Shown piece after piece: positions 1,202 through 53,066 of a stretch of DNA of 64,000 bases (positions are counted from its first letter, which is position 1; each line of letters starts with the position of its first letter). The position numbers and the translations under genes are program-made. Origin of the DNA: a virus; UHGV virus genome UHGV-1962423, one strand, 5' to 3'. The notes beneath the pieces were generated by a model. It made no database searches and was not told the DNA's origin. It was given only the letters and a program-made list of their open reading frames with translations.

Positions 1202-2710
1202 ATGCAACAGTATTTTGAAATTCCGTCGTTAGACGCGACCATTCGCAAACCGATAATCGATGGCGTTATACAACGTGTACTTAATGAATCAGGTATTGAT
1301 AAAGCAGCGGTTGTTTTCCTTGATGAATTCAATAGCGCTCATCAACCCGATTCCACGTTAGGCGACGGTACAGAAGTTGAGTACAGCTCGCCTGAAAAGG
1401 TGTATGTTGAAGTAGAAGAAGAACGCGATGAGTGGGCCAGAATCAATCGTCAGGTTGGTCAGCAAGCCGAACCGTACTTCTTTGAAAACTCCGTCGATCA
1501 GGTGCGTGCCTGGCCCGTTAGAACGATGTATAACGTAACGGTGACGTTACGACGTACCAGTGCTTCTCGCGATGAGTTATTGCGCTGGACAAACCGTTTA
1601 GACTCGTTAGTGGACATGGGTCGCTATTCGACAATGACCGAGTCAGAAGCGTTTTATTATATTCCGAAGCCAGCACTGAAATTGTTGAATGCCTGTTATG
1701 TCGCCGCAGGGACTCGTGTACCGACGTTTGACGATTTTAAAGCCTATCTCAAGGCGTACTTTACACCCGACGTGTTTCGCGCTGCTAACGTTGCCGGTGG
1801 ACAGGAATCTATTGCGGTTCGCTATGCACCTACTCGCTTAGAGACTGTATACGACGTTCAGACACCTGCCTGGGATAAAGACGAGAACCACTGGGAAGCT
1901 ACATTCGTCGTGCGTTTCTCTTATCAACGTCCTGAAGAGATTGTGGTTTCGTATCCGTATATCATCAACCAGACACCGCTTCCTGATGAATATTGGCCAG
2001 AGATAGATCCACCGTGGGTGTCTAACGAAGAACTGGTGTATCGTCATCCGCAACAAAAGAATCTCGATTCAACGTGGTGGATTAACGAAACCCGTCAGTA
2101 TATTCGTTTACCGTATCTACTGTCACCGACAGAACAGTTCCACCGTACACATTCCCCGTTAAAAGATAAACTCTTACACGTTTTCGGAACAGACGTTGTA
2201 TTTGATGAAGACAACATGAGCTCACCGAAAGTGTTATCTGTGGAGGATTTACCGTACGAGTGGAATCCAGATTTGTTGCCGTATATCGAACACTGTCGAG
2301 CAATAGACCCTACCGGGCAGACAGGTGTCTTCCGTGTGGAGCTGTTCGAAGAAGGACAAATCATCGAACCGCGTTTCTATCATTGGGAAGACAATACCTT
2401 CTTTTTGAAAGGACGTGATTTAAAAGTTAACAAGAGTTACTACCTAACCGAATCGGTGATGTTCGACTGGCGAGGGATGAACCTGTGGCCACTCCAGCTC
2501 TATCCTAAAGCTGCGAAGGTGTTGATAGAATGGTTATTTCCGAAATGGGATGTACCGGACTGGTGGTGGGATAAACCCGTATTACCGCCTAGTGTTGTCG
2601 ACGACATTAATAAACTGATTCCTAACGTAGAAGCCCGCGTCTTGCTGACGGTGCTGAACTCGACTGTGATTACCATGCGAGGGACAGAGAATGCTCAAAG
2701 CGAAGCGTGA
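1202..2710 (+). CDS. hypothetical protein (502 aa)
   Basis: Long ORF, AAGGAA RBS before ATG 1202; first of a tightly coupled five-gene block. Confidence 0.8.
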   Translation: MQQYFEIPSLDATIRKPIIDGVIQRVLNESGIDKAAVVFLDEFNSAHQPDSTLGDGTEVEYSSPEKVYVEVEEERDEWARINRQVGQQAEPYFFENSVDQVRAWPVRTMYNVTVTLRRTSASRDELLRWTNRLDSLVDMGRYSTMTESEAFYYIPKPALKLLNACYVAAGTRVPTFDDFKAYLKAYFTPDVFRAANVAGGQESIAVRYAPTRLETVYDVQTPAWDKDENHWEATFVVRFSYQRPEEIVVSYPYIINQTPLPDEYWPEIDPPWVSNEELVYRHPQQKNLDSTWWINETRQYIRLPYLLSPTEQFHRTHSPLKDKLLHVFGTDVVFDEDNMSSPKVLSVEDLPYEWNPDLLPYIEHCRAIDPTGQTGVFRVELFEEGQIIEPRFYHWEDNTFFLKGRDLKVNKSYYLTESVMFDWRGMNLWPLQLYPKAAKVLIEWLFPKWDVPDWWWDKPVLPPSVVDDINKLIPNVEARVLLTVLNSTVITMRGTENAQSEA

Positions 2711-4061
2711 TAAGCCGTCAACATTTGAACCCGTAGACCGGCCTATCCCCGAATTAAATAAACCACAGGACGGTGTAAAAGAAACCACCAATATCGTTAC
2801 GCAACCCACACGTACAACCGTTACTGATTTAGACCGTATTCCAAAGCAATACCTAATGAAGTATCTGGAGGGGTCAGCGTGGACGGTGGACTTCTTTAAC
2901 TTCCTGAAAGGAAGAAACGACGCCAAGAAGTTTTTCGATTCGAAAGTGCTTACACCTGACCAACAGGTGGAGAAAATCATCGGGTTGGAGCTGCGTGTAA
3001 CGTCACCTCTCGACCGAAGCCAAGACACCACGAACAAAACGTTCAGCATGTCAGGCGCTGCAACAATTGCAAACTCGATTATCCCTAACGAAGGTTGCTT
3101 TTTCATCGCCCCTATCGGTGACGGTCGTTTCGCGTTGTTTAACGTTACCAACGTTGTGCGTATGTCGAATAACAAAGTCGCGACGTACAACATTGAATAC
3201 ACGTTACTTTTCGAAGTTGACCCAGAAACCGCAGAAACGATTCGTCGTTGTACCGTACGTGAATACTACTACGTTGCAGAGCGTGCCTGGACAGGTGGTG
3301 ATACACTTCTCACACCGAAAGAGTACCGTGCGTTCCTGGAAGTCGTTGACGCGATTGAAGACATTGAACAGACATATGTGAAACGTTTCTACGACGGTGA
3401 AACGGCCACGTTGTTGTTCCCACACGATCGTCACAGCGACGGTTTGCGTAGCCGTGCTTACTACGACGTGTTCTTAGCGCTGTTTGTGCGTGCGGTGGGG
3501 TTACGTACCGTAGGTAAGGATATTCAGATTTATCCGCATCCACCGATGAACGTGGAAGACATTGAAACGGTGTGGACAGCGCTGCTGCAACAGTCGCCAA
3601 CGTTCTTAGCAGATTACAAACGTGACAGCACGGTGTGGCAAACGAAAACTTTCCGTACGATGCAACATCGTAACTCGGTAACGTGGTCGTTGATCTCTGA
3701 TACCCGGTTCTTTACGGAAGAGTTAAAGCCAGGTTACGGGATGGCGCAACGTTTCCCCGGTCAGTGGCCAGAATGGAAACCATTTGAACCGGTTGAAGTT
3801 GAAAACTATCGTGGGAACGAAGGGGAGTCTATTCCGGCCTTCCTACCACTGTCCTTTAAACCGTATTTGCTGAGCGAGACGTTCTACGACGGTTCTTACA
3901 GTTCGTTGTTGGAATACGGCTTGTACTTGTATCTGCATAAACGTCCGCTACCGTCGGTAATTGCGTTAAAACTGTTTGAGGAAGTTTATAAGCTCCCGAA
4001 AGACGCACAGTTCTATTACATTCCGATGGTGTATCTGCTTTTAAGATATTCGAGGGATTAA
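2691..4061 (+). CDS. hypothetical protein (456 aa)
   Basis: Long ORF; start overlaps end of upstream gene by 20 nt; GAGGGA RBS. Confidence 0.8.
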   Translation: MLKAKRDKPSTFEPVDRPIPELNKPQDGVKETTNIVTQPTRTTVTDLDRIPKQYLMKYLEGSAWTVDFFNFLKGRNDAKKFFDSKVLTPDQQVEKIIGLELRVTSPLDRSQDTTNKTFSMSGAATIANSIIPNEGCFFIAPIGDGRFALFNVTNVVRMSNNKVATYNIEYTLLFEVDPETAETIRRCTVREYYYVAERAWTGGDTLLTPKEYRAFLEVVDAIEDIEQTYVKRFYDGETATLLFPHDRHSDGLRSRAYYDVFLALFVRAVGLRTVGKDIQIYPHPPMNVEDIETVWTALLQQSPTFLADYKRDSTVWQTKTFRTMQHRNSVTWSLISDTRFFTEELKPGYGMAQRFPGQWPEWKPFEPVEVENYRGNEGESIPAFLPLSFKPYLLSETFYDGSYSSLLEYGLYLYLHKRPLPSVIALKLFEEVYKLPKDAQFYYIPMVYLLLRYSRD

Positions 4062-7188: not shown

Positions 7189-8004
7189 ATGATTACTATT
7201 AAAGATTATTTTCCGCGTGGGTTGAGCAATGAAAACTTCGTTCCAACTGAAGACATTGCCATCGTTGCAGAGTCCAGCGATAAGTCTTTTAAACTCTACT
7301 TGAGTACGGCAGCAGGAAAATCCACTCTTATCCTTCGTGAACCTGAAGTGATAAGCATCTGCTCGTTTGGGGGTGGTGTAGAAGGAACGATTAACTGGTT
7401 GAAATCCAGAATGCATCGTTTGCTTATCGTGAATACCGATCCTGTGATTCGTTTACAGCAATTGAAATCGTTGAATGAAATTATCGTCGGATTATTGGAA
7501 CATGAAACGTTTGGTAATGCTGAGATTGCGGAAGCGATTAAATCTGTAGAACTAATCGAGTGGAGCGATATCGAATACGAACGTGCTGGGTTATTCGCAA
7601 TGTACGGTGATGATAATCCCGTTGCGTTTGCACAAACGTTGGATAATGTTACCGTAACAGCGCGCGTATTGTTTGGTTTACAACGTGTTGAGTTTGAACT
7701 GAAACACGTCTACGTGAGCAATAAACCGGAGATGGTGGAGACATTGATTCGTGCTTTCGCATACCCGTTAGACGGTGAATGGGAACAGCAGATTAATGAA
7801 GCGTTAGAAGCCATGCATTTCCTGGCTGAAACGTTAAGGAAGGATGAGAAATTGAAAGGTCGTGTTTATCCAGAACACGATTTTGTTTGTGAAGAATGTG
7901 GAGCACAGTATCAAATCCGTGTTCCTTTAACCGGCCTAACATTCCCGCAAGCCAACGTGCAATGTAAGGAATGTGGTCATGTTCAATACGTAGCGATTAA
8001 ATAA
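7189..8004 (+). CDS. hypothetical protein with C-terminal zinc ribbon (271 aa)
   Basis: GGAG RBS; C-terminal CEECG...(21 aa)...CKECG pair of CxxC motifs. Confidence 0.75.
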   Translation: MITIKDYFPRGLSNENFVPTEDIAIVAESSDKSFKLYLSTAAGKSTLILREPEVISICSFGGGVEGTINWLKSRMHRLLIVNTDPVIRLQQLKSLNEIIVGLLEHETFGNAEIAEAIKSVELIEWSDIEYERAGLFAMYGDDNPVAFAQTLDNVTVTARVLFGLQRVEFELKHVYVSNKPEMVETLIRAFAYPLDGEWEQQINEALEAMHFLAETLRKDEKLKGRVYPEHDFVCEECGAQYQIRVPLTGLTFPQANVQCKECGHVQYVAIK

Positions 8005-17982: not shown

Positions 17983-18026
17983 GTTTGGATTGGGGGTGGA
18001 AACATCCCCATTTTTAAGGAGTGCGT

Positions 18027-18275
18027 ATGGCCGCTTATGTTGATTACAGTAAAGCCAAGATAGAGCTAAACGTAATTGATACCGTAGAGCGTTTAAAGCA
18101 ACAACTTTCTTTGGAGTTATATCAACTTCGCGTCCGTATTCACGAGCGTGAACAACTTATTGAGAAACATCCATTATTTATCGACGAGAAGCAGGTAAAA
18201 CTTATCACTGCGGAGTTAGAAGTTATGGCCGCAGAGAAACTGTTACTCGAAGAACGCATCGCTGCTATTGGTTAA
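18027..18275 (+). CDS. small coiled-coil protein (82 aa)
   Basis: Track start GTG 18021; ATG 18027 has AAGGAG 5 nt upstream. Confidence 0.65.
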   Translation: MAAYVDYSKAKIELNVIDTVERLKQQLSLELYQLRVRIHEREQLIEKHPLFIDEKQVKLITAELEVMAAEKLLLEERIAAIG

Positions 18276-18285
18276 TCATCACACA

Positions 18286-18320
18286 AGGAGAGCCGAAGCT
18301 CTCCTCCTTTATTTTTATTC
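18286..18320 (+). terminator. rho-independent terminator
   Basis: aggagagc-cgaa-gctctcct followed by cctttatttttatt. Confidence 0.7.
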
Positions 18321-18363
18321 CCCAATTTATTATAGCCGCCCACTATAGTGAGGGAATGAGGAA

Positions 18364-18669
18364 ATGATTAAATATGTTGTTATTAATGTAAACTACGAAC
18401 GTAGTCCACGTTTTCGCTTCGAATTACCTGAAACCAATGCAACCATGGAGTTTAATCGCTACTTTTTAGAGCATTCAAACACCAAAGTCAATCGCGGTAG
18501 ATACTAGCTTATCTACTATAATGCACGTAATGAGTTACTGAAAGCCGTCAAGAAATCAGGTCAGCAAGAATTGTTAGCGAAACTGATGGCGTTTGATAAC
18601 GATCCTTTAGCAATAGGAATTATGTTAGACCTTGTTATCAATAAAGACGAAATAGCGTGGTCCGAATAA
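18364..18669 (+). CDS. small ORF interrupted by in-frame TAG at 18505-18507
   Basis: ATG 18364 then 47 codons, TAG, then 53 further sense codons in the same frame to TAA 18667-18669; both halves look protein-like. Could be two genes, an amber allele, or readthrough. Confidence 0.35.
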
Positions 18670-18723
18670 AAAAGCTACTCCGACCCCAGAAGGGTCGGAG
18701 TAGGCTCGAATTATTTTTTTTTT
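18664..18723. terminator. bidirectional terminator between convergent genes
   Basis: ctactccgaccc-caga-agggtcggagtag flanked by A-run upstream and T-run downstream. Confidence 0.7.
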
Positions 18724-18728
18724 GCTAT

Positions 18729-21446
18729 TTAGAGAGTTTCATCGCTGTTGTCATCTGCACCGGTATCCGTCTCGTCCGTGCCTTCAGTTGAAACGTCTTC
18801 TTCCGTTGCCGTATCGGTTTCCGTCGTTTCATCGTCAGTCATGTCCAAGTCTTCATCACCGCCCAGATCGTCACCACCTAAGTCCTCATCGCCTCCTAAG
18901 CCGCCGTCATCTTCAGTGCCGCCGCCAAAGTCGCTGCTACCGCCGAAGTTATTGGCGTCTTCAGGATTCAGATCAGCCGCTTTTGCTAACGTTTCAACTT
19001 TCCCTGTTACACGTTTTGCCAACTGAATCAGTGTCTTAGATGCAGACGCAATTTCGTCAGAGATCATCTTAACGTTTTCACCGCGTTTCTCTTCATCGTA
19101 AATCAGGTCGAACATATCGTTCTCAATACCCTGACTACGTAACCAGTGGCGCGCGTAGAAGGTCTTAACCATCGTCTTGAGGTCATCAGGTGACATTTCA
19201 ATACCTTCGTTCTGAAGCATATTAGCAATGTCATCCGTGACCACCAGATCTGCAAGTTTCTCGATAAATTCATAGCGTTTATCGAAGAGATCAGCTTGAG
19301 ATGCTGTTGCAGAAGTATCAGGTGGTGGCAAGGTGACCTTCATACCGTTGATAAACTTCGCCATATACTCTGACGTTTGTTTTGTCATCTCTTCGCTAGA
19401 TACATTCGGATTCTGCTCACGGATATACTCAACGATAATACGGATGAGTTCTGCTTGCAGTTTCGGTGAAGCTTGCAGACTGTTTGTAACGTAGCGCGTA
19501 AGCGGGGTTGAGAGGATTTCCTGTTTCTTCACAATCTGTTGAGTAACCAACAGCGATTTAGAATAAATCTGAGAAGCAAACTCCAGGTTCTCCGGGGTAA
19601 GTACAAGGTCAGGATCAACACACGCGATGTGACATGTACGGCGTAACAGGTTCTCGTCAATTTGTTGATCAGGAACTTTATACTCCGGCGTGGTATCAGA
19701 CACAGACACTTTGTGGCTGGCGTAGTAATCGTTACCCGTTACGTTAAAGGCAATCCCCGCGTTAGCTCCCATTGCCCAAGCATCGTTAATATCCCCCCAC
19801 ATCGGTAAACGACGGTTGTAGGAGTTAAGGATATCTGATTTGGCTTGGTCGACAGTTTTTTGACCGTTTGCATCGTCCGGTGACAGCTCAATGTCGTACT
19901 GCATGTGACGTGCCGAGTTTAGTACAGATGAGTTCATTGTCGCAAACAGCAGTGCCATCCTGACGGTGGAGATGATAAAAGAGCGTTCAGTGATAGAAAC
20001 CCCGATACCATCTTCGTTAAAATCCGTTGCAAAATAGCATAGGTTATTAACCGGAATGTAAACCACTTGAGTATGACGTTTTGCGAGATGACGCGCTAAC
20101 AGAATACGGCCGAATGTTTCGGTAATATTCATGCTGATTTCTGCGCCACCTAGTGCCTGACTTAATGCGCGAGCAAATTCGTTTTCAGCGATTTCACCGC
20201 AACGTGTACTTAAACGGTTGGCGATTTCCGGGGTAATGCGAGAAGTGTTCCCTAAGCCCAGATTAGAACGGTTAATGATGCTGTCCGTCATCCCGTCGTT
20301 ATTCAGGTAGTTCATAAAGTTCGCATCGCCGTACAGCGAGGAGCGAGCATTGATGAAGTTACCCATGTCATCTACGATGGTCAGATAACCAATAGGGTTA
20401 CGAACGTCATCGCCAATTACCAGTGGCAGCGTTGACTCTGCGGGCAGTAAACGTTCGATGTATTCGATTTTGTTATTCTCATCCATTGAGATAATAGGAA
20501 TATCACCGTACGTTTGTGTTTTCGGTGTTGACTTATACGCCTCGTTTAAATCACCCAAGTTAATGAACCCTTTTTCAGCAGCGTCACGCTGACGGTCATC
20601 GAAAGATTGGTTAGGGTCGAACGGACTGCCACCGTTTGGTGTAGACGGCTTTTCATATGCGGCTTGCTCTAATTGCCCGTACAAACCCGTACGTGCGTTC
20701 TCATGCGCGATACGACGATACAAATCCGGCAGCATGGTAATGCGCGGGTTATCGGTAATCGTGATTTCCATCTGGAATTTATCCGAGAACATCGAATCGT
20801 GCTTACCGAAATCGATTTTCAACGTCTGAGGACCAGTAACGGCTCCGTGTAAACGGTTGAGAATTGATTCCACACCAACTCGCTGCCCTTCTTTCGGCGC
20901 ATTAATAGGCCCGAGAATACCAAGCTGTTGTTCGAAGAACGCCGTTTGGGAACGACGAATAGATTCAGTAGCGACCTTTGTATTCAGACCGAATAATTGG
21001 TCGAAGCCGGTATCCGAGATTATCATCACTGGACTTGCGCCTTTGGTTTTTAACGCATCGTAAATCCACTGATATAATTTCTTAGGTAGCTGACGAATGT
21101 TATCGTGATAATCACGGGTCGGTGTCAGTAGCGCGTTACGCAGATCAATGGGGATGTCCGCGAAGTTGTCGTAAATCAACGTCGTGTTGATTAAGTCTTT
21201 TGTTGATAACAGGCTCGAAGTTGCAATAGTAACGATTGTTTCGAGTTCAGGTAACGCATCAAAGATACGTTCCGCATTTTTGATAGTACGAATACGTGAA
21301 CTCGCAATTGCCGTGAGTTCTTGACGTGTTGGCGTAGAACCACCCTCGCTACGCGTACCGCGTTGTTGCTGAGGTGCTGGGCCCGTAGTTTTACGAAGAA
21401 TTGCAGCTACGGCGGGGTCGCCCGTTAATTTACTAATATCGTCCAT
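18729..21446 (-). CDS. large hypothetical protein with Gly/Asp-rich acidic C-terminal tail, possibly virion-associated (905 aa)
   Basis: Long minus-strand ORF; GGAG RBS on minus strand; C-terminal ~75 residues are GGDEDLGGDDLGGDEDL...TDETDT low complexity. Portal or structural role is speculation. Confidence 0.8.
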   Translation of the reverse strand: MDDISKLTGDPAVAAILRKTTGPAPQQQRGTRSEGGSTPTRQELTAIASSRIRTIKNAERIFDALPELETIVTIATSSLLSTKDLINTTLIYDNFADIPIDLRNALLTPTRDYHDNIRQLPKKLYQWIYDALKTKGASPVMIISDTGFDQLFGLNTKVATESIRRSQTAFFEQQLGILGPINAPKEGQRVGVESILNRLHGAVTGPQTLKIDFGKHDSMFSDKFQMEITITDNPRITMLPDLYRRIAHENARTGLYGQLEQAAYEKPSTPNGGSPFDPNQSFDDRQRDAAEKGFINLGDLNEAYKSTPKTQTYGDIPIISMDENNKIEYIERLLPAESTLPLVIGDDVRNPIGYLTIVDDMGNFINARSSLYGDANFMNYLNNDGMTDSIINRSNLGLGNTSRITPEIANRLSTRCGEIAENEFARALSQALGGAEISMNITETFGRILLARHLAKRHTQVVYIPVNNLCYFATDFNEDGIGVSITERSFIISTVRMALLFATMNSSVLNSARHMQYDIELSPDDANGQKTVDQAKSDILNSYNRRLPMWGDINDAWAMGANAGIAFNVTGNDYYASHKVSVSDTTPEYKVPDQQIDENLLRRTCHIACVDPDLVLTPENLEFASQIYSKSLLVTQQIVKKQEILSTPLTRYVTNSLQASPKLQAELIRIIVEYIREQNPNVSSEEMTKQTSEYMAKFINGMKVTLPPPDTSATASQADLFDKRYEFIEKLADLVVTDDIANMLQNEGIEMSPDDLKTMVKTFYARHWLRSQGIENDMFDLIYDEEKRGENVKMISDEIASASKTLIQLAKRVTGKVETLAKAADLNPEDANNFGGSSDFGGGTEDDGGLGGDEDLGGDDLGGDEDLDMTDDETTETDTATEEDVSTEGTDETDTGADDNSDETL

Positions 21447-24176: not shown

Positions 24177-25056
24177 TGTCAAAGTTTACGACGGTAAACT
24201 CTCGACGGTAACACTTAATGCGATGCGTCTGGCTACCGCATTAATTACCGGTGCCGATGTGCAATACCCACAGAAGTCCACACTGAATGAGTTTTATAAG
24301 CTCATGCAAACCCCAGTGCCGGACGGTAAAGCACGTCCCCATTTGCAGTACATGGCGATTGGTAACCGTGGCCACATGGTCGACACATCAGATGTTGTTG
24401 CTGATGTTGTTCCTGTAGCTAAAGAACCTATCGCGTCCGGGATGTTTTCACGCGTTCCGTTTGTCCTGCGTACTAAAGACAACGATTTGTCTGATGAACA
24501 GCGTAAGAACTACGCTTTCCGTACTCTGGAAACCATCAACAAACGTGAGTATTGGGCGTACTATTTAAAACGCATTGACATGCGTGCAGTAAAAACTACC
24601 GACTACGACATTAAGCGTGAGAACGGTGTTGAAACTGTAGAAGACTTTGTTTATACGGACACTGAACTGAACCCAGTACCGAAAGTGTTGCCGGATTACG
24701 ATTACGATGATGACGGTACTGTTGCAATTCCAGATGGCCGTTATGTGGAATCAGGTGCAGACCTGGTTATCCCGTGGACGGACTTTGATGTTCAGGAGTA
24801 CATGAACGTGACCAGCATTATGCGCGGCAGCCCTCGTAGTTCGATTATCTCTGAACTGGCACTGTGCTCCGGTTTAGACCAGGTAACGTCTGGTGACTCT
24901 GCGACTGGTTCGAAGTTCAGTTACACTGAAGCTATTGGTGTACAAGCCCTGTATTACATTTCGATGTTTACTAACCTGGCGCAGACGAACGATAAATTGT
25001 CACTGACAATCCGTATCGGTCAACCTGCGCCGTTCTTCTTAGGGACAGCGAATTAA
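24169..25056 (+). CDS. hypothetical protein (295 aa)
   Basis: Start overlaps upstream stop (coupling). Confidence 0.75.
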   Translation: MSNVKVYDGKLSTVTLNAMRLATALITGADVQYPQKSTLNEFYKLMQTPVPDGKARPHLQYMAIGNRGHMVDTSDVVADVVPVAKEPIASGMFSRVPFVLRTKDNDLSDEQRKNYAFRTLETINKREYWAYYLKRIDMRAVKTTDYDIKRENGVETVEDFVYTDTELNPVPKVLPDYDYDDDGTVAIPDGRYVESGADLVIPWTDFDVQEYMNVTSIMRGSPRSSIISELALCSGLDQVTSGDSATGSKFSYTEAIGVQALYYISMFTNLAQTNDKLSLTIRIGQPAPFFLGTAN

Positions 25057-25700
25057 TGTTGATTCCTGAGCCGAGACTTCCCGATAAGATGGTCAGGATC
25101 GCGGCGATAGACCCCGGTACGAGCCATCTCGGGATGGCGGTGTTGGATTGGGAATATGGCAGCGACCAAGCCGAAGTGGTGTGGGCTGATACTATGCATG
25201 TATTAGACCCAACACATCCAAGTGCGTTTGCAGAATGTGTTGGTAAACGCGACGATCGCTTAGTAAAACTCGAAGCGTGCTACCGTGAGTTTCTTCGGAT
25301 TGCGCGTCCGACGTTCGTTGCAACAGAAACGCCGTTCATGCGGCGGGCAAAACTCTCCGCGTATGAATCTGGCGTAGAGTTACAGCTGATGCTGAGACGG
25401 GCGTTATGGGACGTGTTTCCAGAGAAGGTGCTACACGGGTTCAATCCGATTATTGTAAAATCATTCGTCGGTGTGGAAGCGAAAGGAACGGACAAAACAG
25501 ATATGTTTCGTGCCGTAACGAAGTTGTATCGCGACCACGCGTTGATTGACATTACGACTTTGGACGAGCACAGTATCGATGCCGTGGCGGTGGGGAATAT
25601 CTTTGTCAGGGTAAACCTGTTAAACTTGAATAGTCTCCTACCGCCAAAACAAAAGTCTATTAAGACAGCAAAACGGCGGAGAAGACGTCGGAGGAAATAG
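25056..25700 (+). CDS. ruvC: RuvC-like Holliday junction resolvase
   Basis: MVRIAAIDPGTSHLGMAV matches the RuvC N-terminal catalytic Asp motif; basic C-terminal KRRRRRRRK tail; TAATG coupling. Ends with TAG. Confidence 0.65.
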   Translation: MLIPEPRLPDKMVRIAAIDPGTSHLGMAVLDWEYGSDQAEVVWADTMHVLDPTHPSAFAECVGKRDDRLVKLEACYREFLRIARPTFVATETPFMRRAKLSAYESGVELQLMLRRALWDVFPEKVLHGFNPIIVKSFVGVEAKGTDKTDMFRAVTKLYRDHALIDITTLDEHSIDAVAVGNIFVRVNLLNLNSLLPPKQKSIKTAKRRRRRRRK

Positions 25701-26369: not shown

Positions 26370-27056
26370 ATGAAGGAATTGCAATTAAGAAAGCGTACTA
26401 CTCTTATCCCCCTTAAGGAACTAAAACAGTGTCCCGTTTTCTACTCACCGAAAGATCACCTAGATTTATCTAAAGAGAAAAAGATTATTATTTCTGCCTT
26501 CCGAGAAGTAATCAATCTTCGTTATTTCGCGGCACCAATGGATTGTGCTATCGAACATGCTATGTTGGATGGAAGAACGTCGCTTACAGTTTACGATTTG
26601 TTAGAAGAAAAGAATATCGGTATTGAAACTGGTATACTGAGAGTAAACAAAAATGAGTTATTAGAAAGTCAAAAACAACTAATGACAGGTGTTCAATTAC
26701 TCTTAGAGCAATATGGCTTCTATTCGGAAAAACCAACTTCTGCGGTATCTACACAACCCATCATCTGTGACCATGGGTTTGAGGTAGAATGGAAAACAAT
26801 TCGAGGGCAAGATTTTATTTTAATACATTGGTTCGTTCCCTATCTTTGGAAAGAGCGTACCACAGTTTATGCTTTACTTGAATTCGCTGTCTACTGGAGC
26901 ATTTATAAAAAAGAACGTGCTACTGCAATGAAAACGGTAATGACCACACCGTTAAATCAACTTTTTACCTCTGGGTTAGAAACAGATTTTAACGAACTAT
27001 GTACAACTATTTTCAAGATGGAGTATGGCTATGCACCAGTTGGATATAACCGCTGA
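26370..27056 (+). CDS. hypothetical protein (228 aa)
   Basis: GAGGAG RBS before ATG 26370. Confidence 0.75.
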   Translation: MKELQLRKRTTLIPLKELKQCPVFYSPKDHLDLSKEKKIIISAFREVINLRYFAAPMDCAIEHAMLDGRTSLTVYDLLEEKNIGIETGILRVNKNELLESQKQLMTGVQLLLEQYGFYSEKPTSAVSTQPIICDHGFEVEWKTIRGQDFILIHWFVPYLWKERTTVYALLEFAVYWSIYKKERATAMKTVMTTPLNQLFTSGLETDFNELCTTIFKMEYGYAPVGYNR

Positions 27057-42298: not shown

Positions 42299-42829
42299 GT
42301 GATAGCGAGACTTATGAGTTGGTTTAAGCAATGTCGGGCAAAGGCGGTCGAATGGCCGCCTATTACGCACGATGAAAAGGTGGTTGCTTTTCTGAATTAT
42401 AACAAAGACTTGAAGAGATTAGGCGAGTTAATGCGCTTAACGGAATGTCAGGTTTTTGCTAAGATTTCAAGTAGTGCTTTACGTAAACAGGTAATTCCCT
42501 ACCTATCCTTTTCAGGGCAGGTTTATGCAATAACAGCAGAAGAATTTTTATCGATGGTGGGCAATGAAACCCCACGTATACGGTACTCGGTTGCGGGTTC
42601 ATCTGATGCGGTCGGTACAGTTGATTTCGGACGGTTGTATCAGAGCATTAAAAGTGTGGGGCATATACATGTTAAGCGATTATCAGAAACTTCTGTAGTG
42701 ATTTATCATCGCACTGAGCACGATTTGTTAGGGTGTGTTATAAGGCTAACAAATTTACATAGTTTTTACGTTGATTTACTTACAGAGTTTTATCCAGAAT
42801 CATGGTGCTATATAGATGAAAATAAATGA
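42299..42829 (+). CDS. hypothetical protein (176 aa), probable GTG start
   Basis: GTG 42299 with GAGGA 10 nt upstream; alternative ATG at 42314. Confidence 0.6.
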   Translation: MIARLMSWFKQCRAKAVEWPPITHDEKVVAFLNYNKDLKRLGELMRLTECQVFAKISSSALRKQVIPYLSFSGQVYAITAEEFLSMVGNETPRIRYSVAGSSDAVGTVDFGRLYQSIKSVGHIHVKRLSETSVVIYHRTEHDLLGCVIRLTNLHSFYVDLLTEFYPESWCYIDENK

Positions 42830-43028
42830 CGGATATATCATCTCAGCAATTGTTTCAACTGCGTTGATTGTAGCGATGTTGATGTTCTACGTTAAGACGT
42901 TCGACGAATCACGTAGAGAGTCCCTTTATCGTGAATGTATGTCAGGTACTACTGTAGATAACCCACGTTACGCTGAATTAGTAATGGCGTGTACGGAATA
43001 CGCTAAACGAATGGGAGGCGGACGATGA
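42816..43028 (+). CDS. small membrane protein (70 aa)
   Basis: TM segment IISAIVSTALIVAMLMFYV; Cys-containing C-terminal part similar to the next gene. Confidence 0.6.
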   Translation: MKINDGYIISAIVSTALIVAMLMFYVKTFDESRRESLYRECMSGTTVDNPRYAELVMACTEYAKRMGGGR

Positions 43029-43222
43029 AAATTTGGTTGCCGATTGTAGTTTTTATCCTTATCGCAGGGGCACTAGCGAACGCCGAGTACGAGAGTCGTG
43101 TTTTAGAAACGAAACGCATGTTGTATCTGAATTGTATAAAGGATTATACACCAGGCACAGAGCTTCATGCACAGGCTGTAAAAAGCTGTGCATTGATGGC
43201 TGAATCACAGACTCGCTCCTAA
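43025..43222 (+). CDS. small membrane/secreted protein (65 aa)
   Basis: MKIWLPIVVFILIAGALANA signal/TM segment; ATGA coupling; weak similarity to upstream small membrane protein. Confidence 0.6.
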   Translation: MKIWLPIVVFILIAGALANAEYESRVLETKRMLYLNCIKDYTPGTELHAQAVKSCALMAESQTRS

Positions 43223-44892: not shown

Positions 44893-47800
44893 ATGGCTAA
44901 AGCGGTAAAGAAAATTCGTTTACACGATTTACGTCCATACACCGGTGATATCGGTGAAGGCGTTTTACTTTTCTCCAAGGATGAGAAAGATTATAAGTTA
45001 CCAGTCCGTGAGGTTATTGCAGATATTGACACCGTACGTAATGCGGTGGCTGATGCACAAACAGCAGCAGCACAATCACAAGAAGCTGCAACTCAGGCTA
45101 CGCAAGCAAAAGTTTTAGCAGAAGCAGCAAAACAACAAACTGACACAGTTGCGGCAACGGTTGCACAACAAGCGCAAACCGTAACCGAAAAAGCAACAGA
45201 AGTCAGTACAAAACATACCGAAGTGTTAGCCGCGAAAACGGCGGTAGACGCTCAGGCTGTGTCCATTAATGAGAAAGCACAAGCGGTAGCGACAAGTGAG
45301 GCAAACGTCACACAAGCAGAAACTACCGTTACGAAGAAAGCAGAAACTGTTGCCACACAAGCCGGGCGGGTCGAACAGTCACTTACGGCAGTTAACGAAG
45401 CTGTTGCGTCGGTAGAGTCGTCGAAAGCTGCCGTAGAAGCTAAAGCAACACAAGTTACTTCAGACAAAGAAACCGCAGAGAATGCGGCAACTCGTTCTGA
45501 GGCAGCCGCTAAGCGTGCGGAAGAAATCGTTGCTCAAGGTACTGTTGATGCAACAACGACCAGTAAAGGTGTCGTTAAACTTAATAATACCTTAACCAGT
45601 GACTCTGTTACTGAAGCGGCTACACCGTCAACGGTTAAGCAGTTAAATGATGAATTGCAGTTAAAAGCAAACCGTCACAACCCAACTTTTACCGGTGTGG
45701 TAAAAGCACCGACTCCTGCTTCGGATTCTAACGACACGAGCGTCTCAACGACTGCATGGGTACGGCAAGCGATTGCTGAATTAGTGGACTCTTCACCCGA
45801 GACGTTAGATACGTTATCAGAAATTGCAGCCGCGTTAGGAAACGATCCTAACTTTGCGACAACGATAACGAACCAACTAGCGGGTAAACAGCCGTTAAGT
45901 CCGTTACTGACAGCGATTGCCGCAGTCACCACCGCTGCAAACAAACTCCCTTACTTTACCGGTAGTAATCAGGTAGGGTTAGCGGATTTCACCTCGACTG
46001 CTCGCGAATTATTAGCGAAAGGGTCGACGGCCGATATCATCAGCTTCCTGGGGTTGAAAACCACCGTTGATAAAGCTGCGGGCGCTATGCAACGTAGTTC
46101 TAACGGTGCCGATATTCCCGATAAAGCCACCTTCGCGAAGAACATCGGGTTGTCAGCAGAGACGTACCTGAAGTTTAATGGGGAGATGCCAGTAGATGCA
46201 GACATCAACACCTTCGGCCCGGTTGAAGCGTTTATGGGCGTTTGGTCTAAAGCCACGTCTACGAACGCAACAGTTGCAAAGAATTTTCCAGAAGAAAACG
46301 CAGTTGGTTGTTTAGAAGTTTTCAAAGCGGGTAACTACAGCGGAAGTCAACGTTTTACTGTACGTAACGGTAACATCTATACACGTCATCTTACTGCTGC
46401 ATGGAATGGGACAAACGGTCCTTGGTCAGAATGGCGTAATGTTGCTGGTTCCGCCAGAACGTTGAACGAACAAAATAATCTGAATGACTTGGGTGGTGAG
46501 GCCGCACTAGGTGTTTGGAGAAACAGTTCGAGTACATTAGCAACAACCGCGCTGAATTATCCTGAAGAAGGCTCTTTTGCCCAGGGCGTATTAGAAGTTC
46601 TCAAAGGTGGCAACTATAGTTACACACAACGCTACACTACCCGCAGAGGCAATGTATACGTTCGTTGTCTACAAGCCACGTGGGACGCTTCAAACCCGCA
46701 ATGGGAAGAATGGCGCTGTGTTGGTCATCAATCTGTCAGCACATATTTCGAAGGCGATCTCGACACGTTAACTTCGCCTAACCGTTATAGCATTACTGAT
46801 AAAGCGACAAACGTTCCTTTAATCGACGGTACTAAAATTATCGGTATCTTGGACGTCAGTCGTCGTTTTGATAACATTAGTGTCGAACAAAAATTCACCT
46901 CGTTTGGTTCTGGGAGCAAAACTACAGGGCGTATTTTCACACGTGTATTCTCCGGTCAATCAAACGGTAAATGGAGTGAGTGGCGAGAGGTTTTCACCTC
47001 GTATTCACTTCCGTTAGTTTTAGGTATCGGTGGGGTTGCAGCTAAGGTTGACCCGTTAGACTGGCAAACCTACGACTTCGTTCCTGGACAGATGTTAACG
47101 ACGCCGTTGAACACCATGAAAAACATTCCTGCAGGAATGGATTGGGGTACTATTGACGGTAACTTAGTTAACATCCTTGTAGGGCCGTCTGACGACACCG
47201 GTACTGGTCGGAGTATGCTGGTTTGGCGTAGCACAGTGTCTGTTGCTAACTATCGCTTCTTTGCGGTACGTATCGCTGGTGAGAAGGGTAGTCGTACGAT
47301 TACGCCGCGTCAGATGCCTGTGTTGAACGCAGCGCACACCTGGTCAGAGAAACAAACGTTCTCTAAAGGTTTAGCGGGTGAATTAACCGGTAATGCTTCT
47401 TCAGCAACGAAACTTCAAACAGCCCGTTTAATCGGCGGCGTAAGTTTCGACGGCACCAAGGACATTGCACTCCCTGGCGTTAACGCACAAGGTACGCAGA
47501 ACACCACTGGGAATGCGGCTACCGCAACCAAATTACAAACGGCTAGAAATATCAACGGTGTGAAATTCGATGGCTCTGGAGACATCAATATCAACACCTT
47601 AGTAGGTCGTGGACGTGTCACTGCTCTGGCTGGATCAAACAAAGGTACACCTGGTATCCAGATGTACGAGGTTTACAATAACGGTTATCCGACCGCGTAT
47701 GGTAATTTACTGCATTTAGGTGGTGCTACTGCCGTAGGTGAAGGTGAACTACTGATCGGTTGGTCTGGTACCAGTGGCGCACACGCACCTGTTTATATCC

Positions 47801-49209
47801 GTAGTCGTCGAGACACTACAGATGCGCCGTGGTCAGAATGGGCGCAAGTTTATACTGCACGAGACAGCATTCCGGGTGTCAACACCACAGGTAATCAGGA
47901 TACGACCGGAAACGCAGCTACCGCTACAAAACTTAAAACCACACGTAAAATAGGCGGGGTTAATTTTGACGGAACGGGTGATATTAACCTACCAGGTGTA
48001 AACCAGCAGGGCAACCAGAACACAACAGGTAACGCTGCGACAGCGACTAAACTCCAGACTGCCCGAAATATTGGTGGTGTGGCTTTCGATGGTACTAAAG
48101 ACATCAGTTTACCTGGGGTAAACCAAACAGGGAATCAGTCAACTACGGGGAACGCTGCTACTGCAACGAAGTTGCAGACAGCAAGAAGTATCAACAACGT
48201 ACCATTCGATGGTTCGAAAGATATTACTCTAACGCCAAGTAATATCGGTGCGGCTGCCTCCTCAATGACTTGGTTAAATACCGGGGATAATGGTGCAGCG
48301 CTTAGTACAGATTCTTTTATTACTTTGTTGCAAAATAACGGGGCTTTTAATTCCAGAACTTGGATAGCCCGATGCTCTTGGGCGTATGCTCAAAATGGCG
48401 TGATTCCAGATAGTGAAACAAAGTGCGGTACTATTCCACTTGCAGGCTCAGTTATTGAAGTTGTAAGTTTTGGGATGACCAACTACACCATTCGTATCAC
48501 AACCCCTACGACGACATCGGTTAGCGGAGCAAAAACCAACTCTGAGTTTATTTATTGCTATAATGGTAAAGATTATTCTCCAGGTTGGCGACGGCAGTAT
48601 AACACTGTTAATAAACCGTCTGCTAGTGACGTTGGCGCTCTACCAACTGGTGGCGGTACTGTCAGTGGCGATTTGACGGTTAATGGTAAACTGGTTACGA
48701 AAAATGCCGATTTTCGAATTGCTTACGGTAGTTACGGTTTCATTTTACGTAACGATGGCAATAGCACCTATTTCTTAGTAACAGCATCTGGTCAAGCTGC
48801 AACGGGTTCCTGGAATAACTTACGACCGATGTATTTTAGCAACTCTACCGGTCAAGTAACCTTCGGGCACAACGTTACTGGTAACGGGAACGGTTCGTTT
48901 AACGACGTACAGATTCGTTCTGACCGTCGTAACAAACGTAATCTGGTGAAACTGGATAATGCATTAGACCGTTTAGAACTCCTTACCGGGTATCTGTACG
49001 AAGTTCAACATCCTGACGATGGATGGAATACTTCGGTAGGCTTAATTGCCCAGGATGCATTAGTTGCGTTACCTGAATTGGTTACTGAAGACGATGACGC
49101 TATTTCTGGTGAAAAACGTTTACGTTTGAACTATAATGGTGTTATTGCGTTGTTGGTAGAGGGCATTAAAGACCTTCGTCGTGAGCTTAAGGAACTCAAG
49201 GGGAAATAA
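44893..49209 (+). CDS. long tail fibre protein with C-terminal intramolecular chaperone domain (1438 aa)
   Basis: N-terminal anchor shared with 50934 gene; Ala/Thr/Gln-rich coiled-coil; tandem TGNAATATKLQTAR.IGGV.FDGTKDI.LPGVN repeats like T4 gp12/gp34/gp37 fibre repeats; C-terminus SDRRNKRNLVKLDNALDRLELLTGYLYEV...GLIAQDALVALPELV matches the self-cleaving chaperone of endosialidase/L-shaped fibre proteins. Confidence 0.85.
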   Translation: MAKAVKKIRLHDLRPYTGDIGEGVLLFSKDEKDYKLPVREVIADIDTVRNAVADAQTAAAQSQEAATQATQAKVLAEAAKQQTDTVAATVAQQAQTVTEKATEVSTKHTEVLAAKTAVDAQAVSINEKAQAVATSEANVTQAETTVTKKAETVATQAGRVEQSLTAVNEAVASVESSKAAVEAKATQVTSDKETAENAATRSEAAAKRAEEIVAQGTVDATTTSKGVVKLNNTLTSDSVTEAATPSTVKQLNDELQLKANRHNPTFTGVVKAPTPASDSNDTSVSTTAWVRQAIAELVDSSPETLDTLSEIAAALGNDPNFATTITNQLAGKQPLSPLLTAIAAVTTAANKLPYFTGSNQVGLADFTSTARELLAKGSTADIISFLGLKTTVDKAAGAMQRSSNGADIPDKATFAKNIGLSAETYLKFNGEMPVDADINTFGPVEAFMGVWSKATSTNATVAKNFPEENAVGCLEVFKAGNYSGSQRFTVRNGNIYTRHLTAAWNGTNGPWSEWRNVAGSARTLNEQNNLNDLGGEAALGVWRNSSSTLATTALNYPEEGSFAQGVLEVLKGGNYSYTQRYTTRRGNVYVRCLQATWDASNPQWEEWRCVGHQSVSTYFEGDLDTLTSPNRYSITDKATNVPLIDGTKIIGILDVSRRFDNISVEQKFTSFGSGSKTTGRIFTRVFSGQSNGKWSEWREVFTSYSLPLVLGIGGVAAKVDPLDWQTYDFVPGQMLTTPLNTMKNIPAGMDWGTIDGNLVNILVGPSDDTGTGRSMLVWRSTVSVANYRFFAVRIAGEKGSRTITPRQMPVLNAAHTWSEKQTFSKGLAGELTGNASSATKLQTARLIGGVSFDGTKDIALPGVNAQGTQNTTGNAATATKLQTARNINGVKFDGSGDININTLVGRGRVTALAGSNKGTPGIQMYEVYNNGYPTAYGNLLHLGGATAVGEGELLIGWSGTSGAHAPVYIRSRRDTTDAPWSEWAQVYTARDSIPGVNTTGNQDTTGNAATATKLKTTRKIGGVNFDGTGDINLPGVNQQGNQNTTGNAATATKLQTARNIGGVAFDGTKDISLPGVNQTGNQSTTGNAATATKLQTARSINNVPFDGSKDITLTPSNIGAAASSMTWLNTGDNGAALSTDSFITLLQNNGAFNSRTWIARCSWAYAQNGVIPDSETKCGTIPLAGSVIEVVSFGMTNYTIRITTPTTTSVSGAKTNSEFIYCYNGKDYSPGWRRQYNTVNKPSASDVGALPTGGGTVSGDLTVNGKLVTKNADFRIAYGSYGFILRNDGNSTYFLVTASGQAATGSWNNLRPMYFSNSTGQVTFGHNVTGNGNGSFNDVQIRSDRRNKRNLVKLDNALDRLELLTGYLYEVQHPDDGWNTSVGLIAQDALVALPELVTEDDDAISGEKRLRLNYNGVIALLVEGIKDLRRELKELKGK
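47385..48240 (+). repeat. tandem in-frame coding repeats of the fibre motif
   Basis: At least five copies of the ~25-50 aa unit; nucleotide copies differ at synonymous positions. Confidence 0.7.
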
Positions 49210-50933: not shown

Positions 50934-53066
50934 ATGAGTCAGCCAATTGGAAAGAAGCGTATTCATGAGCTGGAAACATTTGAAGGTGAATTAGCAGGAG
51001 TCGTTCTGCTGATGTCCAAAGACGACAAAGAATATAAACTTGACGCATCTCGTTTACAAAACGATAAGCTGTATCTAGCTTGCGGTACACCTTTTCCTAA
51101 ACTAGTATTCCAAAACGATAAAACACTTTACAATATTAATCCGTACAGTGACTACGACACTTATGAAGTTTCTGCAAATAAAGGTCGGGTATCTAAAGTT
51201 ACTCGTGCCACATTTAGCGTGATGGCTGGGTCTTTATCGGTTGGCGAGAAAATACAACTTACAGTTACGCGCAATGGCGTACCATTTCAATTTGAAGTTA
51301 CCGTATCGGGACCGCGTATCACTACTCCCACTTGGACACTTCCAGTTAATGGCGGTAAATTGAGCGTAACGCCAACCTTTGAAGTAACTGACTATCAAGC
51401 CTATCCATATACCAACACCGGTAATCAACAGACCGCTGCCAGTTGGGAAATTTCCACTAGTGAAGATTTCTCAACTACAGTTTTCCAATCACTGAACGAC
51501 ACCGTCAACAAAACAACCATCAGTATCCCAGAAGGTAAGTTAGAACCAGGTCAAACTTACTACGCACGTGTTCGCTTCCATAACGCAGTAACCGAAAGTG
51601 ATTGGTCCGTTGTTCAATTCTCAGTCGGCGAAGCATTTATTCAGCGTCCTGCACTGATCGAACCCACCGTAGACATGGTGTTAAGCGCATCGAATATTAC
51701 ACTTAAAACTGATGTTTTTAAATGGGTCGGTGACGAACCTGCGGAGACCCACGTATCGACTGACTGGCAGGTTACTTACGGTAGCAACGATTTTGACGAA
51801 ATGAATAATCTCGTTAACCAATTAGAAGATGCGATTAACCTGACGTCGCTTAAATTACCGTCTGATCGGGTTTACGTTAATAACAGTTATCGTGCACGCG
51901 TGCGTTTTCGTGGTGAGAGAAGCGTCAGTGATTGGTCTGAACCTTTAACGTTCCGTGTAAGTCGCGGGAACGTACCAACAAGTGAATTCCAGTCAATTTC
52001 TGCTTCTGGATTTACAGGTAATTCAATCGGTGCTGAGTTGGCATGTACTGACGACGGTTTGCTGTTTGCTGCTACTGGCGTTGCACAGAAAGCGAAATTC
52101 TTACATATCTTTAAGAAAGACTTCCCGTCTTACAACAAAGTTGCCTCTTTAACAGCTGCTACTGAGGTTGACGCAGACAGAGATGGTCGCTGTCCGGTCA
52201 GTATGTCAGCCGACGGTAAGATTATTGTTGTCGGTGTTAGCGCATCTAAAGCTAACGAAGACCACGGCGAAGTTATCGTTTACCGTAACCCAGATAACGC
52301 TGAGTGGAGTACAATCAACGGAATAACTTTAGCGGGATTACCCACAGAAGGGTTCCATGGCCTTGCAGTAAAACTGTCAAAAGACGGCAATCGTTTGATT
52401 GTGGGTAACGGTACGAAAGTGCTGTCTATGTATTCCAATACCGATCAATTTGCTACACGTACGGCTGTGTCGCCGACACTAAGTGCCGAAGACGCCACTT
52501 GTGGTGGTATTGGTAGCATTGCAATGTCTGAAGACGGTAACGGTTTAGTGCTTGGCGAAACTAACGGAACGAAATTCCACGTACTGGCTTGGGAATCGGA
52601 TAGTTGGGTGACTAAGGCATCTATTACACCAAAAGACTTGACTGAGAAAGCAACGATTAAAGTCGCTGCTTCTTCTGACTTGTCTACGATTCTTGTTTCT
52701 GTAGTTGAGACACACAAATACTACGTTTACAAGAAAACCGGTGATAGTTGGTCTCTGTTCCAAACCTTGGATTATACCGAACTGGATTACTCCATTACTT
52801 CTACCCGTTACCCGACGGGAGACATTAATGTTGCGCCTTCCGGAAGCTGGTTAATTTTCGGTATGGTGGGTTCGTTGGGTTCTATTTTCGAATTTCGTAA
52901 TAGTACCTACCAACGACAAAATAGCATTTACGGCAGTAGTCTTAGCGATCCTGAGAATTACCACTTCTATACGTCACAAGCCATCAGTGCACAAAACGAT
53001 TTGTTCGTCGGTGCTGATGTTAAAGAAAGTGCTTCGTACTTCCCACAAATCAAAGTTTACATGTAA
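50934..53066 (+). CDS. second receptor-binding protein (tail fibre/spike) with shared N-terminal anchor (710 aa)
   Basis: N-terminus KKRIHELETFEGELAGVVLLMSKDDKEYKL parallels KKIRLHDLRPYTGDIGEGVLLFSKDEKDYKL of the 1438-aa fibre; central Ig/FN3-like stretches; C-terminal repeated ..DG..IVVG.. units suggestive of a beta-propeller (inference). Confidence 0.6.
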   Translation: MSQPIGKKRIHELETFEGELAGVVLLMSKDDKEYKLDASRLQNDKLYLACGTPFPKLVFQNDKTLYNINPYSDYDTYEVSANKGRVSKVTRATFSVMAGSLSVGEKIQLTVTRNGVPFQFEVTVSGPRITTPTWTLPVNGGKLSVTPTFEVTDYQAYPYTNTGNQQTAASWEISTSEDFSTTVFQSLNDTVNKTTISIPEGKLEPGQTYYARVRFHNAVTESDWSVVQFSVGEAFIQRPALIEPTVDMVLSASNITLKTDVFKWVGDEPAETHVSTDWQVTYGSNDFDEMNNLVNQLEDAINLTSLKLPSDRVYVNNSYRARVRFRGERSVSDWSEPLTFRVSRGNVPTSEFQSISASGFTGNSIGAELACTDDGLLFAATGVAQKAKFLHIFKKDFPSYNKVASLTAATEVDADRDGRCPVSMSADGKIIVVGVSASKANEDHGEVIVYRNPDNAEWSTINGITLAGLPTEGFHGLAVKLSKDGNRLIVGNGTKVLSMYSNTDQFATRTAVSPTLSAEDATCGGIGSIAMSEDGNGLVLGETNGTKFHVLAWESDSWVTKASITPKDLTEKATIKVAASSDLSTILVSVVETHKYYVYKKTGDSWSLFQTLDYTELDYSITSTRYPTGDINVAPSGSWLIFGMVGSLGSIFEFRNSTYQRQNSIYGSSLSDPENYHFYTSQAISAQNDLFVGADVKESASYFPQIKVYM

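Follow-up and report, generated by a model that had tools for sequence, protein, structure and literature searches.

A stretch of 64,000 nucleotides from the virus genome UHGV-1962423, hereafter called the window, carries on its plus strand a short open reading frame in which a TAG codon is followed, in the same frame, by a further run of protein-like codons. The question raised by this locus is whether the TAG is the end of a gene, a codon that is read through, or a lesion within a single gene. As described in the earlier note, the frame opens with the ATG at 18364-18366, runs for 47 codons (MIKYVV...NRGRY) to the TAG at 18505-18507 and continues for 53 codons (LIYYNARNELL...EIAWSE) to a TAA at 18667-18669; all of these positions were confirmed in the sequence. 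The statement that no plausible restart follows the TAG was likewise borne out, the next in-frame starts being TTG 18571 and ATG 18586, both without a Shine-Dalgarno sequence, from which peptides of 32 and 27 amino acids, respectively, would be made. The minus strand across the region contains only a 26-amino-acid open reading frame. In the public annotation the part before the TAG is listed as a 47-amino-acid hypothetical protein (NCBI DAY64696.1).

Judged by their sequence, the two parts are one gene, the orthologue of gene 80 of Salmonella phage SPN3US (SPN3US_0080, AEP83913.1). When the joined sequence was used as a tblastn query, one continuous alignment across the stop was obtained to a single annotated gene of approximately 100 amino acids in 69 jumbo-phage records, from the SPN3US-like Seoulvirus phages of Salmonella, the Erskinevirus phages of Erwinia, Machinavirus and others. 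The best match of the joined protein had an E value of 4e-24 and approximately 50 % identity over 97 % of the query length. Because the alignment runs unbroken across the stop into single annotated genes, the open frame after the TAG is not a product of chance. Open reading frames of six relatives align through position 18505 at 89-98 % identity. The orthologue is a single coding sequence of 99-102 codons in SPN3US, pEa_SNUABM_29, phiEaH2, Huxley and the phage copies of E. coli 98232 and Enterobacter ludwigii 51A:C, and in these six the gene order is the same, 3' of the orthologues of genes 78 and 79 and convergent with a portal-like gene of approximately 905 amino acids (the gene 81 orthologue). 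The possibility, mentioned in the earlier note, that orthologues might consist of two independent genes at this locus was examined, and each orthologue proved to be one open reading frame, not two. The features of the locus are as follows.

18286-18315, plus strand: terminator-like hairpin (18286-18305) and T-run after the gene 79 orthologue (18021-18275); the stem is conserved and the loop varies among relatives
18331-18347, plus strand: palindromic TATAG-N7-CTATA 5' of the gene 80 ribosome-binding site; the half-sites are kept across genera and the centre varies
18350-18354, plus strand: Shine-Dalgarno-like GAGGG, 9 nt 5' of the ATG; GAGG is kept in relatives
18364-18507, plus strand: 5' part of the gene 80 orthologue, with start codon, 47 codons and premature TAG; aligns to residues 1-47 of the SPN3US gp80 family
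18505-18507, plus strand: amber codon TAG in place of an invariant TGG (Trp48); the changed base is 18506, A in the window and G in all relatives
18508-18669, plus strand: 3' part of the gene 80 orthologue, with 53 in-frame codons and TAA; contains two helices (51-65 and 68-79) and, at residues 82-89, the most strongly conserved strand, LAIGIMLD
18675-18703, no strand assigned: 13-bp GC-rich hairpin with T-runs on both strands, a bidirectional terminator between gene 80 (plus strand) and the portal-like gene (18729-21446, minus strand)

The half-sites of the palindrome are conserved in Seoulvirus and Erskinevirus relatives (SPN3US, phiEaH2 and pEa_SNUABM_29). Searched for as a general promoter consensus, the palindrome gave 3 matches in the window where 1.4 were expected, which does not amount to recurrence, and it therefore looks like a gene-specific element, which may be a promoter or an operator. 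With terminators on both sides, gene 80 appears to be monocistronic, and no polar effect on other genes is expected.

The protein matches the family phrog_10389, annotated as 'unknown function', with an E value of 2.8e-30 over residues 1-95. It has the full-length similarity and the conserved genomic position of a family member, and shares with SPN3US gp80 the upstream palindrome and the downstream terminator as well, but the open reading frame in the window is broken by the TAG at codon 48. With the TAG repaired, a search of 5.8 billion proteins gave 22 clusters, all of 98-101 amino acids and with up to 99 % identity (P0001), and these clusters and all loci compared span 98-102 amino acids. 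The gene 80 family is restricted to SPN3US-like nucleus-forming jumbo phages, in which it belongs to the head-morphogenesis region and is specific to the clade. Among 1.84 billion representatives, a profile search returned just four proteins (representatives at 50 % identity), and DNA-level searches with the 751-bp region gave no match among deposited phages, for which the protein-level search was needed. One insignificant match and no domain were found in Pfam, a Foldseek search of the PDB with the gene 80 model gave nothing at E <= 0.001, and the fold matches in BFVD were all uncharacterised jumbo-phage proteins. No mention of the family was found in the searchable literature; the 'gp80' in a paper which also names SPN3US is gp80 of phiKZ, a virion RNA polymerase subunit, and is irrelevant here. 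Two proteins of 583 amino acids which share a cluster with the 47-amino-acid fragment at a nominal '90% identity' (P0023-P0025) have unrelated sequences and were rejected as a clustering artefact, as a result of which the fragment is hidden from homology searches.

Genomes of the same species as the phage in the window (96-98 % nucleotide identity) are found in IMG/VR contigs and in two bacterial assemblies. The copy in E. coli 98232, a urine isolate, is a circular 'plasmid' of 221,873 bp (NZ_CP173450.1, L093-L098), and that in Enterobacter ludwigii 51A:C, a gull isolate, is a complete circular 'plasmid' of 222,441 bp (NZ_CP134650.1, L105). Phages of this kind are also present in assemblies of Shigella and Salmonella isolates. 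The proposed 'Bapsvirus' group of Chimalliviridae likewise occurs in bacterial assemblies, and a carrier-like state has been suggested for it (PMC12768965; bioRxiv 10.1101/2024.12.31.630880). Judged by the published descriptions, the phage in the window appears to fit this group: genomes of approximately 222-226 kb, syntenic with Seoulvirus but diverged from it, and found in the same hosts. Among the 225 features of the E. coli 98232 copy one is flagged by PGAP as a pseudogene.

In both protein and DNA alignments with more than 20 relatives, at identities from 40 % to 99 %, the TAG aligns with an invariant TGG, the codon of Trp48. Base 18506 is G in every other locus compared, L005-L012, L014-L017, L019-L021 and L030-L033 among them; these loci cover at least nine distinct close alleles, each with TGG, and four other genera. 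The codon is also TGG in the two complete genomes derived from isolates, E. coli 98232 and E. ludwigii 51A:C, within a 24-nt context that is otherwise identical. Comparison of orthologous loci, which the earlier note had named as a check, thus gave a sense codon in every relative. The lesion is very probably an ordinary, recent nonsense mutation of natural origin, a single G-to-A transition at 18506 which changed TGG to TAG. The transition would have arisen in the phage population of one human gut sample, and translation would stop at the TAG to give a 47-residue fragment; the 3' part (18508-18669) is probably untranslated in this genome. Among the four options put forward in the earlier note, the recent pseudogene or nonsense mutation is supported, because the amber codon stands in place of an invariant TGG, is confined to one sample and has been followed by no further damage; a laboratory amber stock, programmed readthrough and a pair of small genes are rejected. 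Codon 48 lies in the 6-nt loop of a hairpin formed by an 8-bp inverted repeat at 18496-18517 (GGTAGATA / TATCTACT), which is lineage-specific and absent in SPN3US and is thus probably coincidental.

Gene 80 is under purifying selection in the relatives in both of its halves, with dN/dS of 0.12 for codons 1-47, 0.14 for codons 49-98 and approximately 0.13 overall. In the window, 18506 is the sole base of the gene that is common to no relative. Besides this base, the window differs from its nearest allele, L005, at five positions, all shared with other lineages; four of them fall on third codon positions, and at the fifth (Leu/His) it is the L005 lineage that has the derived state. The mutation appears recent, since there is no sign of decay after the stop, that is, no other private change in the gene. 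Neither further disabling mutations nor the relaxed constraint of a decaying pseudogene were found. When private substitutions were counted over 37,718 nt against at least three agreeing same-species genomes, 628 were obtained, with 454 synonymous, 133 nonsynonymous, 38 intergenic and one genuine nonsense, the change at 18506. Without selection, and with the observed spectrum, 454 synonymous changes should be accompanied by approximately 979 nonsynonymous and 55 nonsense ones; one nonsense change against some 55 indicates that such changes are normally purged efficiently.

The region 18300-18700, which contains gene 80, forms a mosaic patch that matches the L005-L012 lineage at 99-100 % identity. 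The flanks of that lineage are just 60-85 % identical to the window, and the same-species relatives, 97 % identical overall, are only 91-95 % identical to the window here. This patch points to recent recombination between co-circulating lineages at gene 80. Elsewhere in the window, the 228-amino-acid open reading frame at 26370-27056 has no similarity to the 217-amino-acid gene that takes its place in the same-species relatives, with both flanks conserved, and is a replaced gene cassette or variable locus. The 1438-amino-acid open reading frame at 44893-49209 is only 74-82 % identical to the same-species relatives and has partial relatives in dozens of unrelated phage contigs of 45-100 kb; its counterpart in the E. 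coli record carries annotations of tail fibre and phage tail proteins, and the frame is likely a mosaic host-range determinant. At approximately 43026-43220, a small open reading frame (MKIWLPIVVFILIAGALANAEYESRV..., approximately 64 amino acids) with a predicted N-terminal hydrophobic segment, conserved in three relatives, lies between the open reading frames ending at 42829 and starting at 43222.

All six contigs with the exact 47-amino-acid product derive from run ERR525924 (SAMEA2580141) of PRJEB6456, the Bäckhed infant/mother gut cohort. At least five assemblies are represented among the contigs with the TAG, and the name of one SPAdes contig includes 'cov 23.7' (approximately 24x). A JGI contig of 200,862 bp matches the window at 100 % identity over 20,144 nt, and ENA OBXH01000029.1 does so over 10,641 nt. 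The A at 18506 is a robust consensus, though all of its support comes from the one sequencing run.

This common origin of every TAG-bearing contig could point to a sequencing or consensus artefact, with G as the true base at 18506, as could the position of the wild-type site in a GGC motif and in the loop of the inverted repeat, since GGC motifs and inverted repeats are triggers of Illumina sequence-specific errors. Such errors are strand-specific, however, and seldom flip a consensus, the same base was obtained by at least five assemblers, with approximately 24x coverage in one contig name, and G stands at this site in more than ten further assemblies of the Illumina era in which the local sequence is otherwise exactly the same, so that an artefact is quite improbable. 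Far less credible is an origin in a laboratory phage stock, as a hydroxylamine-type amber mutant like those of the SPN3US amber collection, for which hardly any probability remains. The phage is related to SPN3US, and TGG to TAG by G:C>A:T is one of the two changes expected from hydroxylamine (PMC5105663). The window thus has the same type of lesion (Trp to amber, G:C>A:T) as the SPN3US laboratory ambers, in the same phage lineage, but in another gene, in a phage from a human gut metagenome where it arose naturally, and with no sign of propagation on a suppressor host. This provenance, the Bäckhed cohort rather than a mutagenised stock, excludes a laboratory stock as the source. The gene 80 protein is, in addition, only approximately 50 % identical to that of SPN3US, and the 31 amber sites published for SPN3US, which defined essential genes in a screen that was not saturating, do not include gene 80 (Thomas et al. 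2016, PMC5105663). Nor do the private substitutions have the excess of G:C>A:T alone that would mark such a stock: their spectrum is natural, two-way and transition-rich, with 270 G:C>A:T against 206 A:T>G:C changes, and 152 transversions.

Explanations in which the TAG is not a lesion, namely reassignment of TAG in the whole genome or in late genes, conserved programmed readthrough, or two independent small genes, account for an in-frame TAG with an open frame behind it, and for nothing else; their probability is negligible. TAG ends 7 of the 77 genes predicted in the window (9 %), including the open reading frame at 25056-25700, which the earlier note had cited as an example of TAG as a normal stop. 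For six of these seven genes every relative with an alignment over the stop keeps the TAG, often with the start of the next gene directly after it, which upholds the earlier judgement that genome-wide recoding is unlikely. When open frames of relatives were translated against the window, 18505 was the sole stop inside a conserved coding frame in the approximately 60 kb that could be compared. A search for loci related to 50934-53063 gave no relatives. Other candidate interruptions were rejected, those at 43201 (TGA) and 57731/57752 because the stops lie 5' of the true starts, and those at 7592 and 27054 as alignment artefacts (a divergent N-terminus and the replaced gene cassette, respectively). 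No tRNA was detected in the window, and no suppressor tRNA with a CUA anticodon in the window or in the complete, 97 % identical same-species genome of 221,873 bp, the sole tRNA of which is tRNA-Ile(AAT); the search for suppressor tRNAs suggested earlier for the full genome was thus carried out on the window and on this relative, and was negative in both. None of the marks of a recoded genome, which are many in-frame TAGs, avoidance of TAG as terminator and a phage suppressor tRNA, was found in the sequence covered. Readthrough is contradicted by the orthologous codon, which is TGG everywhere rather than a conserved stop, and a pair of genes by the orthologues, which are single open reading frames, and by the lack of a start or ribosome-binding site after the TAG. 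More plausible than these, and slightly more so than a sequencing artefact, though still unlikely, is a TAG that is suppressed or leaky in the natural host, by a host amber-suppressor tRNA or by near-cognate readthrough at a weak UAG-C, so that the gene stays functional. The 3' half is intact and without further private changes, the gene is under purifying selection in relatives, and the stop is followed by a C, which makes for weaker termination in E. coli. A very recent mutation would, however, leave the 3' half just as intact, natural amber suppressors are uncommon in wild Enterobacteriaceae, and a suppressor tRNA in the same-species phage genome and a stimulatory structure are both lacking. 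Specifically, no stimulatory RNA structure was found 3' of the TAG (fold z = 0.24 against shuffles), the only local hairpin being the 8-bp one, with the TAG in its loop rather than upstream of it, and no Rfam family reached threshold around the TAG. Since no orthologue has the stop, there is no indication that it is selected for.

The tRNA-Ile with the unusual anticodon AAT in the E. coli 98232 copy (L096, 820-896) adjoins approximately 2 kb without an annotated gene (1405-3492); the region corresponds to NZ_CP173450.1 150820-153492.

The recent natural nonsense mutation would be expected to abolish the function of the protein. In the AlphaFold2 model (pLDDT 80, pTM 0.73) the full-length protein has the order beta-beta-alpha-beta-alpha-alpha-beta, with W48 opening strand 3 and the invariant LAIGIMLD motif forming the last strand. 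Half of the four beta-strands and all but one of the three helices of this model are missing from the 47-residue fragment, which for this reason is likely non-functional. Survival of the allele presumably has one of three causes: the mutation is too recent for purging, gene 80 is dispensable under the conditions of that gut, or the defect is complemented or shielded, either by wild-type genomes in a co-infection or through the carrier-like persistence that has been described for phages of this group. The conservation of the gene under purifying selection sits awkwardly with simple dispensability. It is doubtful, at about the same level as a sequencing artefact, that the knockout is tolerated or even favoured instead of being a transient defect, in that loss or conditional expression of gene 80 could damp virion production and favour the carrier-like persistence in which this phage group appears to live inside Enterobacteriaceae, or that the allele is kept by a natural suppressor host; if either were true, the human gut would harbour a jumbo phage that is by nature a conditional 'amber' mutant.

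In stop-codon-recoded phages, TAG is read as an amino acid with the help of phage suppressor tRNAs. The window has in common with them an in-frame TAG inside a conserved phage gene, but here the site is single, TAG is otherwise a normal terminator, a suppressor tRNA is lacking in the window and in the same-species genome, and the ancestral codon is TGG. The locus may therefore serve as a worked example of how a private nonsense mutation can be told from stop-codon recoding. For the annotation the consequence is that DAY64696.1 is the front half of a broken gene of 101 codons. Taken alone, one nonsense allele in an uncharacterised small gene of one metagenome-assembled jumbo phage is of little importance. 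The occurrence of a knockout in a phage abundant enough to be assembled into contigs of 200-226 kb is nevertheless a weak hint that gene 80 may not be strictly essential.
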